IMG/VR virus record: IMGVR_UViG_2526164651_000005
Direction: 5' to 3' (one strand)
DNA: 16,069 bases
Origin: a virus
Lineage: Duplodnaviria; Heunggongvirae; Uroviricota; Caudoviricetes
Shown here: positions 7,030-16,069 of the stretch, in pieces
How the letters are laid out: each line of letters begins with the position of its first letter
How positions within the stretch are numbered: the first letter of the stretch is position 1
The notes under the pieces: generated by a model
Told to the model about the DNA's origin: nothing
What the model saw: the letters and a program-made list of their open reading frames with translations, nothing else
Database searches by the model: none
Made by a program: the position numbers and the translations under genes

Positions 7030-7167
7030 TTTCCCGCCTGTTAATGTGCTCGCCAATATTCATTACCAGGCGGGAAAACGATCGGTGCGATTACTGATTT
7101 CCTTATGAAAAACGGTTGAGTGTTTGCCGCGTCCTGGAGTTCCTTACTTAACCCCAGGACTTTTTTT
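7030..7167 (+). promoter_or_regulatory. Structured leader of the capsid operon: perfect 11-bp long-range stem (7030..7040 with 7067..7077) and a terminator-like hairpin (GTCCTGG 7131..7137 with CCAGGAC 7154..7160) followed by T7 abutting the capsid ATG
   Basis: Inverted repeats read from the sequence. The T7 run occupies the position where a Shine-Dalgarno would be expected. A second CCAGGAC copy at 7012..7018 could pair alternatively with 7131..7137. Confidence 0.4.
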
Positions 7168-8325
7168 ATGCAGAGAATAATCGAATTACGCCAGCAGAAA
7201 ACCGCCATTAAAAATCAGATGCGCGACATGCTGGAGAACGCTGAAAAAGAAAACCGCAGTCTTAACGATGCTGAGGGCGCAAAATTTGACGAATTACGCG
7301 CTAAAGCTGAATCCCTCGCTAAAGACATTTCCCGCCTTGAAGCCATTGCAGACGAAGAGCGCAGCAAGCCAGGTAAAAGCAGCCAGACCACTGACCCCGC
7401 AGAACTACGCAACTACATTCTGACCGGTGAAACCCGCGCATTAAGTACAGGCGTTCCCGCTGATGGTGGTTATACCGTTATCCCTGAACTGAACACCGAA
7501 ATCATGCGAATGCTGGCGGATGAATCCACCATGCGCCGCATCTGTACCGTGAAGAAAATCAGCAGCAACGAGTTTAAGCAGCTTGTTTCCGCTGGCGGTG
7601 CGACCGTTAACCACGGTGAAGAGGGTAAGGCACGCGAACAGACCAGCACCCCGCAGATTAACGAGGTGAGCATTAAGCTGTATCCGGTCTATGCGTACCC
7701 GCGCACCACACAGGAAATCGTGGATTTTTCCGATGTGGACATCCTTTCATGGCTGACGGGTGAGATTGGCGACACCTTCACGGAAACCGAAGAAAGCGAT
7801 CTGGTTGTGGGCGACGGTGACAAAAAAGCAAAAGGTTTTTTATCCGTACCCCGTGCAGAGAAGAACGACAAAGAGCGTGATTTTGGTACGTTGCAGGTAA
7901 TTAAACCTTCCGAATCTCTGGCGTGGACATCTGCGGACCCGCTGATCGACCTGAAATTTGCATTACGTAAAAAATACCGCAAAAACACGGTCTGGGTGGT
8001 TAACTCCACGACGGCGGCAAAACTTCAGAAGGTGAAGAACGCGAACGGTGATTATATCTGGCGCGACCGTTTACAGGCGGGTGATCCTGATACGTTGCTG
8101 GGCCTTCCGGTCGAATATCTGGAGTTTATGCCTGATAACGTTATTGCCCTGGGTGACTTCAAACGCGGTTACTACATTGTTGATCACGAAACAGGTGTTC
8201 GCACCAGACCGGACAACCTGACAGAACCAGGATTCATCAAAATTTTCACGCAAAAATATTTAGGCGGTGGCGTGGTGGATTCGAACGCGATCAAGATTCT
8301 GGAACTGCCGGAAGACGACGATTAA
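7168..8325 (+). CDS. Major capsid protein, HK97 fold family, 385 aa
   Basis: Coiled-coil-like N-terminal delta/scaffold region (MQRIIELRQQKTAIKNQMRDMLENAEKE...) followed by a capsid body of typical HK97-like length. Gene context (protease and portal downstream). The track start at 7120 (GTG) was rejected in favour of the ATG at 7168. Confidence 0.9.
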   Translation: MQRIIELRQQKTAIKNQMRDMLENAEKENRSLNDAEGAKFDELRAKAESLAKDISRLEAIADEERSKPGKSSQTTDPAELRNYILTGETRALSTGVPADGGYTVIPELNTEIMRMLADESTMRRICTVKKISSNEFKQLVSAGGATVNHGEEGKAREQTSTPQINEVSIKLYPVYAYPRTTQEIVDFSDVDILSWLTGEIGDTFTETEESDLVVGDGDKKAKGFLSVPRAEKNDKERDFGTLQVIKPSESLAWTSADPLIDLKFALRKKYRKNTVWVVNSTTAAKLQKVKNANGDYIWRDRLQAGDPDTLLGLPVEYLEFMPDNVIALGDFKRGYYIVDHETGVRTRPDNLTEPGFIKIFTQKYLGGGVVDSNAIKILELPEDDD

Positions 8326-8335
8326 CAGCATACAG

Positions 8336-8364
8336 AAGGGGCTAAAAAGCCCCTTTAGTGTTTT
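8336..8364 (+). terminator. Intrinsic terminator-like hairpin after the capsid gene (AAGGGGCT-AAAA-AGCCCCTT, then TAGTGTTTT)
   Basis: Perfect 8-bp GC-rich stem with a 4-nt loop immediately after the capsid stop; the downstream T-tract is interrupted, suggesting a partial terminator. Confidence 0.5.
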
Positions 8365-8937
8365 ATGGGTGAAAAAATTATGAAGAGTATGGAAATCCGG
8401 TCATCGGAAATCACCACCAGCGGAGCCGGCACGCTGACGGGCTACGTTGTTCGCTGGGATAAGCTTTCAGAACTGTTATGGGGTGAGTTTTACGAAAAAT
8501 TCCAGCGGGGGGCGTTTACTGAATGGCTTGCGGCGGGTAATGACGTTCGCGGCCTGTATGAGCATGACCACAGCATGTTACTGGGGCGCACCCGTTCCGG
8601 CACGCTGAAACTGGAAGAGGACGAAACAGGGTTACGCTTTGAACTGACCCCACCGGATACCAGTACAGGGCGCGACGTTATCGAACTGGTTAAGCGTGGG
8701 GACATCTCGGGGATGAGCTTTGGCTTTCGCTCCCGTAAGGATGTATGGGATACCACAACAGATCCATGCGTGCGCACCGTGCTGGTGGCGGAACTGTACG
8801 AAATTACCGTTACATCGGTACCGGCTTACCCCGATTCCGGCGTGGAGCTGGCCCGCCGTTCCCTGTATGAGCAGCACCCCGAAAAAATGCCGCGTGCGGA
8901 TAATCGCCGCTGGTGGGCGGATTTAGCGGGGGTGTGA
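8365..8937 (+). CDS. Prohead maturation protease, HK97 family (about 185-190 aa)
   Basis: Size, position between capsid and portal genes, and HK97 prohead-protease-like sequence (…HDHSMLLGRTRSGTLKLEEDETGL…). Start is ambiguous between ATG 8365 and ATG 8380; the latter has GGGTGA upstream. Confidence 0.85.
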   Translation: MGEKIMKSMEIRSSEITTSGAGTLTGYVVRWDKLSELLWGEFYEKFQRGAFTEWLAAGNDVRGLYEHDHSMLLGRTRSGTLKLEEDETGLRFELTPPDTSTGRDVIELVKRGDISGMSFGFRSRKDVWDTTTDPCVRTVLVAELYEITVTSVPAYPDSGVELARRSLYEQHPEKMPRADNRRWWADLAGV

Positions 8938-8938
8938 T

Positions 8939-10150
8939 ATGTGGCCTTTCAGACGAAAAAAAGAGCAGCGCAGCATGACGCTTGATGAATTTATGGCGCT
9001 GGCCGGCACATCGAACACGGGGGCGGGTGAGTACGTATCATCTGGGACAGCGGAATCACTCCCCGCCGTCATGAACGCCGTCACGGTCATCTCTGAGGCG
9101 GTGGCTACCATGCCGTGTTACCTGTACCTGGTACGCAATGAGAAGGGGAAGGAGGCCCGCGAATGGCTTGATTCTCATCCGGTCGATCACATCCTCAACG
9201 AGCGCCCGAACGCGTGGCAGACACCCTACCAGTTTAAGCGAATGATGATCCGCCACTGCCTGTTAAGTGGTAATGCTTATGCGGTTATTCAGTGGGGGCG
9301 TGATGGTTTTCCGGCGGCTTTACATCCTTACCCGCCGCAGTCGGTGAACGTGGAGCAGACAGGTGATCATAACTGGCGCTACTGCATCACTGACGCCTAC
9401 ACCGGAAACACCCGCAACTATTTACCGTGGGAGGTTCTCCACCTTCGTTACTCCACGGATGACGGTTTTATGGGGCGCTCACCTGTAACCATCTGCCGCG
9501 AATCGCTGGGGCTTGGGCTGGCCCAACAACGCCACGGCGCGAGCGTGATGCGTGATGGCATGATGGCGGCAGGGGTTATCACGTCAGGCGAATGGCTGGA
9601 CGGCGTGAAGGGCAAACAGGCATTAGCCGCACTGGAACGCTACAAAGGGGCCAGAAACGCCGGAAAAACGCCCATCCTTGAAGGGGGGATGAGCTATCAG
9701 CAGCTGGGCATGAGTAATCAGGATGCCGAATGGCTGGCCTCCCGTCGCTTCACCATTGAAGACATCGCCCGAATGTTCAATGTCTCGCCGATTTTTTTGC
9801 AGGAATACAGCAACAGCACCTACAGCAACTTCAGCGAGGCAAGCCGCGCATTTCTCACCATGACGATGCGCCCGTGGCTGGCGAACTTTGAGCAGCAGAT
9901 AAAAAACGCCTTGCTGGTGGCCTCGCCTGTACCTGGTATCCGGTATCAGGTGGAGTTTGACAGCGCGGACCTGTTACGGGCCACACCTGGCGAACGCTTT
10001 GCCACCTATGAGCGCGGCATAAAATCCGGCGTTATGTGTCCGAACGAAGCCCGCGAACGTGAAGGGCTGTCACCGCGTGATGGTGGTGATGAGTTCAGCC
10101 AGGCATGGAAACAGGAAGTAAAAATCAGCGAGGGAGAAAAACCGGAATGA
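8939..10150 (+). CDS. Portal protein, HK97 family, 403 aa
   Basis: Length and sequence character of HK97-type portals; tightly coupled to the protease gene upstream and the head-closure gene downstream (overlapping ATGA). Confidence 0.9.
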   Translation: MWPFRRKKEQRSMTLDEFMALAGTSNTGAGEYVSSGTAESLPAVMNAVTVISEAVATMPCYLYLVRNEKGKEAREWLDSHPVDHILNERPNAWQTPYQFKRMMIRHCLLSGNAYAVIQWGRDGFPAALHPYPPQSVNVEQTGDHNWRYCITDAYTGNTRNYLPWEVLHLRYSTDDGFMGRSPVTICRESLGLGLAQQRHGASVMRDGMMAAGVITSGEWLDGVKGKQALAALERYKGARNAGKTPILEGGMSYQQLGMSNQDAEWLASRRFTIEDIARMFNVSPIFLQEYSNSTYSNFSEASRAFLTMTMRPWLANFEQQIKNALLVASPVPGIRYQVEFDSADLLRATPGERFATYERGIKSGVMCPNEAREREGLSPRDGGDEFSQAWKQEVKISEGEKPE

Positions 10151-10485
10151 ACATAGGGCGACTGCGTGACAGGATAACGATTCAGACCCTGAAACAGACC
10201 AGGGATATAACCGGCGAAATACTCGAAACGTGGGAGGACGGTCACACACTCTGGGCAAGCGTGAACATGGTCAGCAGCAAGGAGGCCATTTCATCGGGCG
10301 CAGAGCTGGCGATTGGTACCGTAAGGATCTGGATACGGTACCGGAAGGACATCAACGCCACCAGCCGGATAAAGGTCAGTACGGGGCCGCTGGCGGGGCG
10401 TGTACTGAATATCATCGGGCAGCCGCTGCCGGATGCCGCCAGGACACGCCTTGAAATTCTTTGTCGTGAGGGCGCGGAAAAATGA
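10147..10485 (+). CDS. Head-closure / head-tail joining protein (SPP1 gp16-like), 112 aa
   Basis: N-terminal MNIGRLRDRITIQ... and ...RIWIRYR... match the conserved pattern of phage head-tail joining proteins. ATG at 10147 overlaps the portal stop; AGGGAG lies upstream. Confidence 0.8.
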   Translation: MNIGRLRDRITIQTLKQTRDITGEILETWEDGHTLWASVNMVSSKEAISSGAELAIGTVRIWIRYRKDINATSRIKVSTGPLAGRVLNIIGQPLPDAARTRLEILCREGAEK

Positions 10486-10778
10486 CAGAAGAACTTATCA
10501 CCCTGGAAGAAGTGAAACTCCATTGCCGCATCGATGGCGACGATGAAGACCAGTTAATCAGCGGATACATTGCCGCATCGCTTGAGGCGTGCCAGATACA
10601 CATAGGCAGGCGCTTTGATGACGGGCTGGCGTTCACGCCAGCCATAAAGATTGGCTGCATGATGTTTATCGCTCACCTGTATGAAAATCGCCAGATTGTC
10701 GCGGATAACGCAAAAACACGCGTACCCATGACGATAGGCGCACTCTGGACGGCTTACCGTGATGTGGGGGTGTACTGA
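10482..10778 (+). CDS. gp6-like head-tail connector (adaptor) protein, 98 aa
   Basis: N-terminal ...ITLEEVKLHCRIDGDDEDQLISGYIAAS... resembles the gp6-like connector family. Start overlaps the upstream stop (ATGA). Confidence 0.75.
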   Translation: MTEELITLEEVKLHCRIDGDDEDQLISGYIAASLEACQIHIGRRFDDGLAFTPAIKIGCMMFIAHLYENRQIVADNAKTRVPMTIGALWTAYRDVGVY

Positions 10779-11218
10779 TGCCGTGGCAACCATTAAGACG
10801 ATGCACAGAACCAGGCTGTAACAGGCGCGTTAAATCCGGCAAGTGTGAGGAGCACAGGCGGGCGGCATGGCGTGCAGAGGATGCCAGACGAGGACACCGC
10901 CGCGCGCGTGGATATTCCAGACAGTGGGACAAATACCGCGCCATGTATCTGAGTAAAAACCCGTTATGCGTGCGATGCCTTGAGAAGGGGATATATACGC
11001 CCGCCGTGGTGGTGGATCACATTATCCCGATTAATGGCGGTGATGATGTTCTCTTCTGGCCCGAATGGAACCATCAACCATTGTGCCAGGCGTGTCATAA
11101 CCAGAAAACGAAATGGCTTGATCCGGCAACAAAAAGCAAGCGTGCCGCAGGTGGATTTCGTGAAGAGGAAGAACGGGCTGCTAACCGCAATAACTGGATG
11201 TATGACGCTGATGAATGA
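10778..11218 (+). CDS. HNH endonuclease (terminase-associated), 146 aa
   Basis: Cys-rich zinc-binding pairs (CTEPGC...C..H; C..C; C..C) and the HNH core (VDHIIPI...N.QPLC..CHN.K). Position directly upstream of TerS and TerL, as in HK97-like cos packaging modules. Confidence 0.85.
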   Translation: MPWQPLRRCTEPGCNRRVKSGKCEEHRRAAWRAEDARRGHRRARGYSRQWDKYRAMYLSKNPLCVRCLEKGIYTPAVVVDHIIPINGGDDVLFWPEWNHQPLCQACHNQKTKWLDPATKSKRAAGGFREEEERAANRNNWMYDADE

Positions 11219-11384
11219 GCGGGAACAAAACCGCCTTATCCGTGGACTTATAAGGCAGCGTGACGCATGGAAGACACAGGAAACAGGGCATAAAGATAAA
11301 GCGTCAGGACGCGCAGAACGCATCACAGCGAAGCGATTAACCGACCGTGACCGCGAGGTTATGGAATGTTTCCGCAATCGCTGA
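11211..11384 (+). CDS. Hypothetical small basic protein, 57 aa (MNEREQNRLIRGLIRQRDAWKTQETGHKDKASGRAERITAKRLTDRDREVMECFRNR)
   Basis: ATG overlaps the HNH stop (ATGAATGA), suggesting translational coupling. It is the tail of a longer alternative-frame ORF in the track, so low confidence. Confidence 0.3.
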   Translation: MNEREQNRLIRGLIRQRDAWKTQETGHKDKASGRAERITAKRLTDRDREVMECFRNR

Positions 11385-11506
11385 TGAGGCTGTATGATGG
11401 GGTGGGGGGCGTTTTCAGGACAAACCCGACCCCGCCGGGCACCGAACGCCTCCCCAAATTTTTATGCACGGGAATTTTTTGAAAAATAATCTGACGAAAA
11501 ATAAGC

Positions 11507-11863
11507 ATGGCAAGACCACCGAAAGCCCCCGCCTACCTGGATGATATCGCCGTGAAGCAGTGGCGGGAAAAATCGCGGCAGCTTGCGGAACGGGGAGACC
11601 TGACCCCCGCCGACTGGAGCAATCTGGAACTGTATTGCGTCAACTACTCCATTTACCGGAAAGCCGTTGCAGACCTTGCGGCGCGCGGGTTCAGCATTGT
11701 TAACAGTCAGGGCGGCGAGAGCAGAAACCCCGCATTAAGCGCAAAATCCGACGCTGAAAGAGTGATGATAAAAATGGCCTCCTTGCTCGGTTTTGACCCG
11801 ATAAGCCGCCGTAAAAATCCACCGGAAACAGAAGAAGAGGACGAGCTTGACTGCCTGGAATAA
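11507..11863 (+). CDS. terS: Terminase small subunit, P27 family, 118 aa
   Basis: Conserved P27-family pattern (W...L......D...L..YC..Y........G.........G....NPA.......M......GF.P.SR) and position immediately upstream of TerL. Confidence 0.75.
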   Translation: MARPPKAPAYLDDIAVKQWREKSRQLAERGDLTPADWSNLELYCVNYSIYRKAVADLAARGFSIVNSQGGESRNPALSAKSDAERVMIKMASLLGFDPISRRKNPPETEEEDELDCLE

Positions 11864-13508
11864 GTACGCAGAAGACGTAAAAACGGGCAAAATTCCGGCC
11901 TGTAAACGGTTAAAACAGGCTGTTAAACGGTACTTTTCGGACCTTAAAAGCCCCCTTTACACGTTCGATCGTGAGGTTGTGGAGCGGTTTATTGCCTTTT
12001 CCAGGGTGTGCCCGCACGTAAAAGGACCGATGCGTGGCAGACCCATTGAGCTGGAGCCGTGGCAGCAGTTCGCCTTTGCGTGCATCCTCGGCTTTAAGGT
12101 TAAGGCCACCGGACGGCGCAAATACACGAGCGCCTTTATCGAAGTGCCGCGCAAAAATGCGAAATCCACGACCGCCGCGATTCTGGCTAACTGGTTTCTG
12201 ATTATGGAGAACGGTCAGCAGGATATCTACACCGCAGCGGTGAGCCGTGACCAGGCGCGGATCGTGTTTGATGATGCGCGTCAGATGTGCCTTTTATCCC
12301 GACCGTTACGCAGGCGGGTGAATATTCAGGCGCATAAGGTGATACACCCGAAAAGCAACAGCCTGTTAAAGCCGCTGGCAGCAAAAGCGGCAACCATCGA
12401 GGGGACAAACCCCAGTCTTTCCATCGTGGACGAATACCACCTACACCCCGATAACGGCGTTTATTCCGCGCTTGAGCTGGGGATGGGCGCACGTCCCGAA
12501 GGGCTGTTATTTGCCATTACCACATCGGGCAGTAACGTCGTTTCAGCCTGTAAACAGCACTATGATTATTGCTGCCAGATCCTGGACGGCGAAGAGGTCA
12601 ACGATTCAATTTTTGTACTGATTTACGAACTGGACGACGAAAACGAGGTTGATGATCCGGCGATGTGGATAAAGGCGAACCCTAATATTGATGTTTCCGT
12701 GGATCGTGAAAAACTGGCCTCAACCATCCAGAAAGCGCGGGGTATTCCGTCGCAGTGGGTGGAGATGATGACAAAGCGATTTAATATCTGGTGTCAGGGG
12801 ACTACCCCGTGGATGGGTAATGGTGCATGGGCTGAGTGTGCCGGAACGTTCACGGAGGAAGATTTACACGGTCAGGAGTGTTACGCGGGGCTGGACTTAT
12901 CATCAACCAGCGATATTTCCAGCGTATGCTATGCCTTTCCGGTCGGTAAAACCATTATGCTGATTTCCCGTCATTATCTGCCGGAGTTCCAGCTACAGAA
13001 CCCCGCCAATAAAAACCGCGCTGTCTATCGCCAGTGGGCTAAAGCGGGCTGGATACGCACAACGCCAGGTGACTGCATTGATTACGACCGGATCAGAGAT
13101 GACATCATGCAGGATGCGGAGAAATTTAATATCAGGCTGGTGGGCTTTGATACGTGGAACGCCACGCATCTCAGGACGCAATTACAGGGGGCTGGTTTTG
13201 AGGTGGAGCCGTTCCCGCAAACCTACCTCAGATTCAGTCCGGCGGCGAAATCGTTCGAAGTTTTTGTTAACCGCAGGGTGATTGTGCATCGTGGCGATCC
13301 GGTGTTGTCCTGGTCGATGAGTAACGTCGTGATGCAGAGTGACGCGAACGCCAATATCAAGCCGAACAAGAAAAAATCACCGAACAAGATAGACCCGAGC
13401 GTAGCGGTGCTGATGGCGTTTGGTACATTCCAGGCAGAGCATGAGGCTTTTGCTTTTGATATAAGCGACAGCCACCGCCAGAAACTGGAAGAATTTAGCG
13501 GGGTGTAA
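11847..13508 (+). CDS. terL: Terminase large subunit (ATPase/nuclease), 553 aa
   Basis: Length and sequence features of large terminases. Probable TTG start at 11847 with GAGGA 5 nt upstream, overlapping the end of terS. Start codon uncertain. Confidence 0.9.
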   Translation: MTAWNKYAEDVKTGKIPACKRLKQAVKRYFSDLKSPLYTFDREVVERFIAFSRVCPHVKGPMRGRPIELEPWQQFAFACILGFKVKATGRRKYTSAFIEVPRKNAKSTTAAILANWFLIMENGQQDIYTAAVSRDQARIVFDDARQMCLLSRPLRRRVNIQAHKVIHPKSNSLLKPLAAKAATIEGTNPSLSIVDEYHLHPDNGVYSALELGMGARPEGLLFAITTSGSNVVSACKQHYDYCCQILDGEEVNDSIFVLIYELDDENEVDDPAMWIKANPNIDVSVDREKLASTIQKARGIPSQWVEMMTKRFNIWCQGTTPWMGNGAWAECAGTFTEEDLHGQECYAGLDLSSTSDISSVCYAFPVGKTIMLISRHYLPEFQLQNPANKNRAVYRQWAKAGWIRTTPGDCIDYDRIRDDIMQDAEKFNIRLVGFDTWNATHLRTQLQGAGFEVEPFPQTYLRFSPAAKSFEVFVNRRVIVHRGDPVLSWSMSNVVMQSDANANIKPNKKKSPNKIDPSVAVLMAFGTFQAEHEAFAFDISDSHRQKLEEFSGV

Positions 13509-13521
13509 TGAGGTCAGCAGC

Positions 13522-13803
13522 ATGACAGAAGCCGAAATACTGCGATTAATCCGCCGCGTCTCTGGAATCAGCCAGCAGGCTGACGAACAGACCACGCAGC
13601 CGGACAGCGTGACAGCCGAAAATTATGCGCGTGTTGTTGCTGAGGTGATGCGCCGTGATGGTATCCAGCTTAATGATGCGGATATGCGCGACATACGGAT
13701 CCGCGTTCTGGAAATGCTGGCCTACAATCGCCGCGTTGAACTGTATCGGGAGAAGGAGAAAATCACGTACCACTGGAAGAAGCCGGAGCGGTTACGGCGG
13801 TAA
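13522..13803 (+). CDS. Hypothetical protein, 93 aa (last ORF of the element)
   Basis: GAGGT about 10 nt upstream of the ATG. No recognisable family. Confidence 0.45.
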   Translation: MTEAEILRLIRRVSGISQQADEQTTQPDSVTAENYARVVAEVMRRDGIQLNDADMRDIRIRVLEMLAYNRRVELYREKEKITYHWKKPERLRR

Positions 13804-14052
13804 CTCACTGAGATTAAAGCAAAGCGCAAAATTGCGCTGGCTACATCCCTCACATCTGAGGACTGTTAACCAGCAGGCCGGAATATATTCACAAACTACG
13901 AAATTTTCGCAGTTTAATTACTCGTCAGCTTAATCGCTAACCCGCTCTGATATTTTCGGAAACCTCAATTTGAGGAAGTCGGCGAGGTAACTGTTTGATA
14001 TTCCCGATAGCGCAAAAATGCGCGGTCGGGCAGAATGACCACCACCTCAATC

Positions 14053-14088
14053 GTGACGGAGAGTGACAACCAGTGACACACCGTGACA
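14053..14088. repeat. Four GTGAC(A) motifs at exact 10-bp phasing (14053, 14063, 14073, 14083); candidate binding array for a recombination or regulatory protein
   Basis: Read directly from cGTGACggag aGTGACaacc aGTGACacac cGTGACaaaa. The helical-repeat spacing places all sites on one DNA face. Confidence 0.45.
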
Positions 14089-14140
14089 AAAAGACGGTTT
14101 AACCGTTCATTAAAAATCGACGTGATTTTGTGCTTTCCGG

Positions 14141-14165
14141 ATGACGTGGCCAACGTCATTTTTTA
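14141..14165 (+). terminator. Rho-independent terminator (ATGACGT-GGCCA-ACGTCAT followed by T6)
   Basis: Perfect 7-bp stem with a 5-nt loop and TTTTTT at 14160..14165. On the minus strand no U-tract follows, so it is orientation-specific to the plus strand. Confidence 0.6.
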
Positions 14166-14466
14166 GCGAAAAATTCTGATTAAGGTCACTGGCTGAACGG
14201 TCATAATGACCACGCAGACCATCGAGGCAACCATAGCGATCATCGTTACGGTTGGAGCTTTTCCGCCATTGGTGGAAAAGGTGCACATCTGGATCATCAT
14301 TACGGTGATCAAGGGTATGTAAAACCCACCAGCCTGATTAAAGGTTAACCGGAAAAAAATCCGGTAGCCCCGTTATGGGGATCCCCATATCGACATTAAC
14401 GCCCCTCATGAATTGGTGCGCTTCCCCCTGGAAAGATTACCCGCCTGTATATTTCTTGTGTCTATT

Positions 14467-14498: not shown

Positions 14499-14522
14499 GG
14501 TGTAGTTAATGGTGTAGTCAAT
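14499..14522. repeat. Tandem 12-bp direct repeat GGTGTAGTTAAT / GGTGTAGTCAAT, with a (CTTGA)x3 tract nearby at 14573..14587, close to the phoQ 3' end
   Basis: Read directly. Located in the non-coding stretch between the element cargo and the phoQ stop codon; candidate att or arm-site region. Confidence 0.35.
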
Positions 14523-14608
14523 TTGCGATTTTTGGCACTTTTTCAATGAAAATTGTTTAATCGAATCAATGGCTTGACTTGACTTGATGTAGTGATAAAA
14601 GGACATAT

Positions 14609-16069
14609 TTATTCATCTTTCGGCGCAGAATGCTGGCGACCAAAAATCACCTCCATCCGCGCACCGCCCAGCATGCTCTCTCCGGCGACGATTTTACCCT
14701 CATATTGCTCGGTGATTTCGCGGGCTACCGCCAGCCCTACACCTTGCCCAGGGCGTAAAGTATCAACCCGTTGACCACGGTCGAAAATGATCTCTCGCTT
14801 GCTTAATGGAATACCGGGGCCATCATCCTCGACCACAATATAGAGATGCTCGTCGGTTTGCCTTGCAGAAATTTCGACAAACTCGAGGCAATATTTACAG
14901 GCATTATCCAGCACGTTGCCCATCACCTCGACAAAATCGTTCTGCTCACCGACAAAGCTGATCTCTGGCGAAATATCGAGAGAGATATTGACCCCTTTGC
15001 GTTGATACACTTTGTTCAGCGCTGAGGTGAGATTGTCCAGCAGTGGGGCGACCGGATGCAGCTCGCGGCTGAGCAATGTCCCGCCGCGCATACTGGCACG
15101 ATGCAGGTAGTAGCCAATTTGCTGTGAAATGCGGCTGATTTGCTCCAGCATTACCGGCTCAGCATCACTGACGCTCATCTTTTCACTACGCAGAGAACGC
15201 AGCGTACTTTGCAGCACCGCCAGTGGCGTTTTCAGACTATGGGTCAGGTCGGTGAGCGTCGTACGGTATTTGTCGTAACGTTCGCGTTCACTTTTTAACA
15301 ATCGGTTCAGGTTTCGTACCAGACTGGTCAGTTCTCGCGTTGTGGCTGGATTGAGCAATTCGCGGTTATGTTCTTCCAGTTCGCGGACTTCTTTTGCCAG
15401 GGCTTCGATGGGGCGTAAACTCCACCAGGCGGCGACCCACAGCAGCGGGATCACTAACAGCAGATTGGCTGAGAGCACATAGATAAACCAGCTCCAGACC
15501 ATATAGGAACTTTTTAGCTCCACCGGAATGGTATCCACCACCACAATGGTTAATTTTGGCATCCGCGATGTTGCCGGGTAGACGTTTACCGCCACCGAGT
15601 GGGTCATCTCCGCGTCGTCATCATCTTCCCGCACTTCCTGCAACTGTTGCTGTATCGAATGATCTCCACTCAGCAAGAGGCTGGTATCGTTAACATCCGC
15701 TTCAATTTCATGAAAACCATTCGATTTCAGCCAGTCAGGCTGGATCATTTTCATCAGCCAGGGCACGTCACGTTGCGCCCATAAAAGCTGCCCGTTCTCA
15801 TCATAAATTAGCGTCATGGTGGGGCTTTGCTTGTCGATATTTTCGGGTAACTCGACATGCAACTTATTGTTTTCCCACTGCGCAAGGGTATAGAACAGAT
15901 TGCTCTCGCCACGTAACAGCCGAAACGTAGTTTTATCGAAACTGACGCTATAACCGATCAGCGCGACCATTCCGTAGGCAAGCGAAAGCACCAGTACTAC
16001 CGCTGCCGTTGCCAACAGAAAACGTACCCGCAGCGAGAGCGGGAAAAAAAGACGCAGTAATTTTTTCAT
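14609..16069 (-). CDS. phoQ: Sensor histidine kinase PhoQ (PhoP/PhoQ two-component system), 486 aa, host chromosomal gene
   Basis: Full-length translation matches E. coli PhoQ by recollection ([25 protein letters not shown]... through ...[18 protein letters not shown]). Contains the histidine-kinase H-box ([12 protein letters not shown]) and the ATPase G-boxes ([14 protein letters not shown]). The start codon is the last three bases of the window. Confidence 0.97.

Follow-up and report, generated by a model that had tools for sequence, protein, structure and literature searches.

At the right end of a capsid-forming PICI (cf-PICI) inserted between roxA and phoQ, four GTGAC(A) sites follow each other along the + strand (14053..14087), and the most likely reading is that they are a phage-type iteron array without its initiator, which would be a familiar type of site in an unfamiliar place. 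More specifically, we propose at a probability of roughly 0.4 that they form an orphan iteron cluster for a phage O-type initiator that would serve as an auxiliary origin or as a decoy. The sites were recognized from the letters and a pattern scan, and the proposal is made because they match the iterons of phages in motif, phase, and copy number. All coordinates refer to the window, by which we mean the whole stretch of 16,069 nucleotides that was analysed.

From left to right, the island carries genes for an integrase (1-1230), an AlpA-family protein (1605-1793; PF05930, E = 5e-18), and a D5-like primase-helicase (3692-5443), followed by a block encoding capsid, protease, portal, connectors, HNH, P27-type TerS, and TerL (7120-13508). 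Its last + strand gene is a conserved 93-aa ORF of unassigned function (phrog_1561; 13522-13803), and the phoQ gene occupies the - strand at the end of the window (14609-16069). The original prediction had described four GTGAC sites at exact 10-bp phase that are located between the last element gene and phoQ and close to where transcription of the element would end, and all of this holds, the transcription being that of the rightward operon. The sites start at 14053, 14063, 14073, and 14083 on the + strand, three of the four read GTGACA, and together they are the sole occurrence in the window of the pattern GTGAC-N5-GTGAC-N5-GTGAC with at most one mismatch. None of 200 dinucleotide-preserving shuffles gave a match to this three-site phased pattern, and GTGAC is not enriched elsewhere in the window (15 occurrences on the + and 9 on the - strand, with 16.5 expected per strand). 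The best generic reading of such a sequence is a putative platform for cooperative protein binding to one face of the DNA.

Islands with a nearly invariant version of the array are found at six insertion sites, which are phoQ, clpS, tqsA, yejO, yrbL, and yifB. Of the complete E. coli genomes (5426), 232 have the array, in no case on a plasmid, and the cassette around it gave no match in phage or plasmid collections. Related right ends occur in roughly 900-1150 genomes, so the array, which only 232 of them carry, must be dispensable. It is common to capsid-forming islands and classic PICIs, occurs with both D5-primase and RepA-helicase modules, and is joined to at least six different upstream and three downstream flanks, with the homology between islands stopping exactly at its left edge; the array is thus independent of all other island modules. 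Five of its positions vary between islands, and all of them lie in the spacers (5 of 15 spacer positions compared to 0 of 20 within GTGAC; hypergeometric p ~0.009). The sequences in which these five were seen had come from BLAST or from a search anchored downstream of the array, and not from a pattern that requires GTGAC. Some islands carry five GTGAC copies, which indicates that copy number is maintained or expanded, and a contig from a food metagenome (L387) has a single GTGAC left between unchanged flanks, as expected of slippage between direct repeats. Another variant (L446) has kept the array after loss of the A+T-rich stretch and of the 5' arm of the hairpin that follow it in the window. 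As judged from these comparisons, the array is the part of the cassette that appears to be under selection and the terminator is not. Sequence diversity of the array is low, and its conservation may partly result from recent spread by recombination.

The same arrangement recurs in phages. A scan of IMG/VR for four GTGAC sites at 10-bp phase found at least 120 loci in viral contigs, and among the matches listed 98 of 120 arrays have diverse spacers and are therefore not simple tandem repeats. Of these 98, 67 lie inside mutually homologous phage replication-initiation ORFs (again among the matches listed) that match PHROGs 3729, 1408, and 21423, each described as "replication initiation protein." The annotation of the gene in E. 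coli phages Evi, Tritos, and vB_EcoS-640R1 is "DNA replication protein O," and DnaB-like genes come after several of the array-bearing initiator ORFs. When control 5-mers were run through the same scan, only one of 44 diverse-spacer arrays of TGGAC and one of six of GAGTC fell into such ORFs. The 44 TGGAC arrays at 10-bp phase (viral contigs L251-L341), one of which is in the GTGAC-type initiator family, may themselves mark binding arrays of another protein family. Among the matches listed, the phage arrays comprise 43 distinct cores with 4-13 copies and keep a spacing of 10 bp in 174 of 204 intervals. They always run antisense to the initiator ORF, and in most cases a pyrimidine-rich periodic tract lies before them. 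The origin of phage lambda, too, lies inside its O gene, and we infer by analogy that GTGAC at 10-bp phase is the iteron, and thus the origin signature, of this O-like initiator family. A search of the literature for GTGAC iterons returned nothing relevant, and in a generic scan of genome contigs the matches listed were for the most part tandem repeats rich in G+C.

The array of the window, with four GTGAC at 10.0 bp, falls within the range of this phage family, and the 17-mer AGTGACACGCCGTGACA is found both in an E. coli phage array and in the arrays of L003, L004, and L005. The enterobacterial initiator gene is common among complete E. coli genomes (2186 of 5426, 40%). No cognate initiator gene lies in or beside the island array, and a profile search for the O-like initiator found no matching ORF in seven islands (positive control, 4.6e-125), which makes the island array an orphan. 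The two kinds of array differ in some other respects as well: an A at position -1 is present at 2 of 4 island sites versus 17 of 247 phage iterons, the pyrimidine-rich periodic tract is absent before island arrays, and incoming transcription would meet the island array in an orientation opposite to that in phage initiator genes. We considered oriJ/YdaU of the Rac prophage as a known counterpart and rejected it, given that YdaU has neither GTGAC nor GTCAC and contains different repeats. The ydaU gene itself (DUF1376, initiator-like, E. coli K-12 Rac; L386 1620-2477) shows TGTTCAAACA-type repeats in its middle, and this sequence suggests the same layout of a putative origin inside an initiator gene with another iteron. 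In a Scandinavium hiltneri contig of ~1168x coverage (L032), an origin-like region at 1330-1880 contains many GCCACT/AGTGGC repeats and five GTGACC at 10-12-bp spacing, followed by an A+T-rich stretch that is flanked by more GTGACC/GGTCAC pairs. It adjoins a 561-aa ORF with no Pfam match and may be a plasmid or phage-plasmid origin with a GTGAC-type iteron.

In the window, the array is part of an optional non-coding cassette of ~190 bp (13995..14185) that comprises the array itself, an A+T-rich stretch, and a hairpin and belongs to the variable DNA between the last operon gene and attR. It was delimited by alignment to the O157:H7 island, which occupies the same insertion site and is otherwise collinear but lacks the cassette. 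The cassette is bounded by a direct repeat, CTGAATGGTCATAATGACCAC, and this repetition in the flanks leaves its exact edges ambiguous. The left bounding repeat is a degenerate copy (CGGGCAGAATGACCAC; 14027..14042) that is less decayed in L003 (TTCTGAATGGTGATAATCACCAC), and the right one (CGGTCATAATGACCAC; 14198..14213) includes the palindrome GGTCATAATGACC. Two copies of a ~39-bp module, GGTAACT...GATATT...AGCGCAAAA(A)TGCGC, are found 187 bp apart at 13799-13837 and 13986-14023, and both finish with a palindrome, GCGC-A/T-GCGC. The stop codon of the 93-aa ORF adjoins the first copy, which scores as terminator-like on the - strand. Directly behind the array, an A-tract opens a stretch of 67% A+T (14088..14135), which may or may not be a DNA-unwinding element. 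Most variants retain this stretch, the L006/L447 type has other sequence in its place, and L446 lacks it. It contains a small palindrome, ACGGTTTAACCGT (14094-14106), with a T-run after it on the - strand, and this site is a weak terminator-like match on that strand (-4.4 kcal/mol, z = -1.05).

The hairpin that follows (14141..14164, + strand) resembles an intrinsic terminator, with arms ATGACGT (14141-14147) and ACGTCAT (14153-14159) forming a 7-bp stem around the 5-nt loop GGCCA and five T behind it (14160-14164), so that a stable stem precedes a U-run on the transcribed strand. It had been described as a strong, perfect terminator with a run of six T. The 7-bp stem and the T-run are indeed there, but the fold energy of its RNA (-10.1 kcal/mol, z = -3.2) points to moderate rather than high strength, and only five T lie beyond the stem while the sixth is the last base of the stem itself. 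An intrinsic terminator of moderate strength is plausible. A terminator consensus scan did not list the hairpin, probably because a G-T extension of the stem consumes the T-run. Its stem carries uncompensated mismatches in L003, L004, and L005, with fold energies of -6.5 kcal/mol in L003 and -5.4 kcal/mol in L005, and its 5' arm is deleted in L446; compensatory changes in the stem were not seen among the relatives compared. A T-run is located 10-80 nt past the array in all three downstream variants. On the - strand, a small hydrophobic ORF (14163-14312) with the C-terminal sequence ...GKAPTVTMIAMVASMVCVVIMTVQPVTLIRIFR* has its stop codon inside the T-run of the + strand hairpin. Its relatives, including the array-less O157 island, show a hydrophobic core and conservative changes, and one relative's copy has an internal stop; the ORF could be a small membrane peptide, a toxin-like gene, or no gene at all.

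The sites for integration and replication of the island were located away from the array. Comparison of an empty site (UTI89, L002), attL (L001), and attR (the window) places the att core GGACATATTT at 14601-14610, where it forms the right host junction and overlaps the stop codon of phoQ. Island-free strains match the window only from 14601 on, and the array is thus DNA of the element and not of the host, in line with what the original prediction had assumed. Closer to this core, a tandem of GGTGTAGTTAAT / GGTGTAGTCAAT (14499..14522, + strand), made up of 12-bp GGTGTAGT(T/C)AAT repeats, is found both in attR and beside int in attL (L001 1341-1364). The same tandem recurs in the yifB island L447 and in L249, a tqsA island with an Int of 91% identity, and from this distribution we consider it likely to represent arm-type sites of the integrase. 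The island's own replication origin, with GGTAGA/TCTACC iterons in both orientations, lies directly 3' of the D5-like primase-helicase gene (5457..5704) and includes 4.6 tandem copies of TAAGGTAGA. This layout corresponds to that of Gram-negative PICI origins, which have iterons on either side of A+T-rich DNA immediately downstream of rep (PMC6092414), and the array was rejected as the island's own origin since the published layout is matched at 5457-5704 instead. With the Pri-Rep origin of PICIs the array shares iteron-type DNA (PMC6092414), but the GGTAGA/TCTACC repeats are 8.3 kb away from it and the array is found with various Rep types.

The window also has a gap of ~290 bp between the HNH and terS genes (11218-11507), and HK97-type phages place their cos between HNH and terS. 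Classic PICIs with the array contain lambda-type cosN GGGCGGCGACCT (L004 2866-2882 (+) and 3626-3642 (-); L005 2549-2565), and the two copies in L004 point in opposite directions, which agrees with the pair of cos sites reported for EcCICFT073 (PMC6092414). In both L004 and L005, cosN is more than 1.1 kb away from the array. The capsid-forming PICI literature that we searched contains no mapped cos site and does not mention the array.

This map bears on two explanations that would tie the array to integration or packaging. Phased direct repeats are typical of excisionase-type proteins, the island encodes a member of the AlpA family, and the array is on the attR side, all of which agrees with the original prediction that it represents AlpA/excisionase sites or integrase arm sites of the recombination arm. 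The distance of 514-548 bp between array and att core is, however, well beyond the roughly 200 bp or less expected of such sites, and the candidate arm repeats are those at 14499-14522. Besides, no GTGAC is present in the 321 bases of L001 that span the end of roxA, attL, and the start of int. Presence of the array furthermore dissociates from Int and AlpA in both directions: the O157:H7 island at the same site has no array despite an Int of 99% and an AlpA of 98% identity and the same core and arm repeats, while an island at yejO (beside tRNA-Pro) has it with two spacers altered (GGAGA to GGAGG, ACACC to ACGCC), although its Int is 25% identical and its AlpA barely alignable. A single AlpA protein accession is even shared by the array-less O157 island and the array-bearing tqsA island. 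Xis-type arrays and the arm sites of attP thus resemble the array as direct repeats on about one helix face in an integrative element but differ in that the array is far from the core and does not track Int or AlpA. The recombination role is largely refuted, and we hold it to be highly improbable. Small terminases often bind phased short repeats, too, and the array begins ~550 bp downstream of terL, which would be compatible with a cosB- or pac-like recognition site of the terminase small subunit. But the same array is present in classic PICIs, where cosN is >1.1 kb off and no such terS/terL exists, as well as in capsid-forming islands with their own HNH, TerS, and TerL, and the array sequence was not found in the phage collection, so that we give hardly any credence to this explanation. 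Because the array is independent of recombination, replication, and packaging modules, it is neither an RDF or arm site nor a cos site nor the PICI origin, and the exclusion of these roles counts in favor of an orphan iteron array.

Three other explanations need to be weighed against orphan iterons. The array might be bound by some island or host protein for a purpose that has nothing to do with initiators, e.g., to regulate the operon's end or to form a roadblock or nucleoprotein boundary there. Phased direct repeats are typical targets of small oligomerising DNA-binding proteins, and the islands offer two candidates. One is the product of the 93-aa ORF, which is conserved, has no assigned function, and is encoded upstream of the array in every array-bearing island seen, with only 7-17 nt between its stop codon and the first site in L004 and L006. 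Yet this ORF is also found in islands without the array, and its predicted three-helix model (AlphaFold, pLDDT 71.5) shows no detectable DNA-binding fold and no significant match in the PDB (none at E < 0.9; the top TM-score of 0.53, to the ColE2 Rep DNA-binding domain, has E = 2 and is not significant). It was also rejected as a hidden initiator, with an hhalign probability of 0.2 against the initiators. The other candidate is a YlcI/YnfO-family protein whose sequence looks ribbon-helix-helix-like, but the type of protein varies among array-bearing islands, the homologous region is present in an array-less island, and no GTGAC cluster lies by the promoter of its own gene. Binding by an island or host protein would moreover leave the same motif and spacing in phage initiator genes unexplained, and we regard it as unlikely. 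We find it slightly more doubtful still that the array is a slippage-prone repeat without function, which might descend from a phage origin and be carried along in mosaic non-coding DNA while it spreads among islands by recombination. The optional nature of the cassette, the collapse to one copy in L387, the mosaic flanks with breakpoints at the array, the low sequence diversity, and the decay of the downstream parts in relatives would all be accounted for in this way. Against it, the array has stayed intact beside six or more upstream and three downstream flanks, in one case next to an ORF whose 93-aa protein is of 59% identity, all five variable positions are in spacers and none in GTGAC, and the islands with five copies speak for maintenance or expansion; a neutral remnant fits poorly with this retention across contexts and with changes confined to spacers. 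The array could finally act as RNA, either in the 3' UTR of the late operon or in a 3'-derived small RNA that ends at 14141-14164, with GUGAC repeats to which proteins or target RNAs would bind. The last ORF precedes the array and a terminator-like hairpin follows it on the same strand, and a T-run lies within 10-80 nt of it in every downstream variant, as one would expect. But Rfam has no match at E <= 10, 14048-14166 folds in no remarkable way (z = -1.5), repetition at exactly 10 nt reflects the helix of DNA and not a motif in RNA, and the terminator mutations are uncompensated. Given also that there is no conserved upstream promoter, since islands cease to be homologous where the array begins on its left, the small-RNA locus that had been offered as an alternative does not hold up, and a role as RNA is very unlikely overall. 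MatP, for which GTGAC is the half-site of matS, was considered and dropped, as matS is palindromic and the islands occupy many positions in the chromosome.

For orphan iterons, a chain of events can be envisaged in which a co-resident or infecting lambdoid phage of the GTGAC replication type makes its O-type initiator, which would then load cooperatively onto the four same-face sites of the island. In one outcome, the array would be an auxiliary, helper-driven origin on island DNA, and the 67% A+T flank in the window and transcription from the operon into the array would serve it as in the lambda ori. In the other, the array of the amplified island would titrate the phage initiator and thus act as a decoy. 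We slightly prefer titration or recruitment over a complete origin because L446 keeps the array and has lost the A+T-rich stretch. It is a tentative proposal from sequence comparisons that a satellite may carry, in a small accessory cassette, orphan origin repeats of a widespread initiator family of temperate phages, with which a phage initiator would either fire replication of satellite DNA or be soaked up so as to curb the phage, and we would put it at somewhat less than even odds.

The proposed role has parallels in three known systems. Like lambda-type origins, the array has at least four direct repeats, which in those origins are cooperatively bound by the N-terminal domain of the initiator (such binding is predicted for the island), and, in the version of the window, an A+T-rich neighbor and transcription that reads in; the phage GTGAC arrays additionally share with the lambda ori their location inside the initiator ORF. 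Unlike these origins, the island array is intergenic, has no initiator gene, and is reversed in its orientation to transcription, its repeat is a 5-bp GTGAC core at 10-bp phase compared to the 19-bp iteron of lambda, and its origin activity is putative. In origin-derived phage resistance ("Per") and in plasmid iteron titration or incompatibility, extra origin repeats sequester the initiator and depress its replicon. The array resembles them in having origin-type repeats without an initiator gene and in the proposed sequestration, but those are cloned fragments or control elements of plasmids, whereas here a natural cassette on a satellite amplified upon induction would be responsible for a putative titration. 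P4, SaPIbov5, and EcCICFT073 carry the cos sites of their helpers (PMC6092414; bioRxiv 10.1101/2022.09.08.507074), which, as proposed for the island array, are short cis sites for a helper protein that the satellite does not encode itself. They serve packaging, whereas the array would serve the initiation of replication.

This analysis corrects the map of the island's right end in that the att core, the probable integrase arm repeats, and the origin of the island itself are all assigned to places other than the array. The PICI literature that we searched does not describe an initiator-recruiting interaction of this kind, which, as a matter of a cis site, is invisible to gene-based annotation. 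The signature of GTGAC every 10 bp, antisense and within the initiator gene, could serve to locate the origins of a large and poorly annotated initiator family and would, if our reading is true, be the origin signature of a family that is present in 40% of E. coli genomes. If an O-type initiator indeed binds the array, satellites would exploit or sabotage the replication of their helpers through a cis site of ~35 bp and without any gene, and this would be the replication counterpart of satellites that carry helper cos sites.
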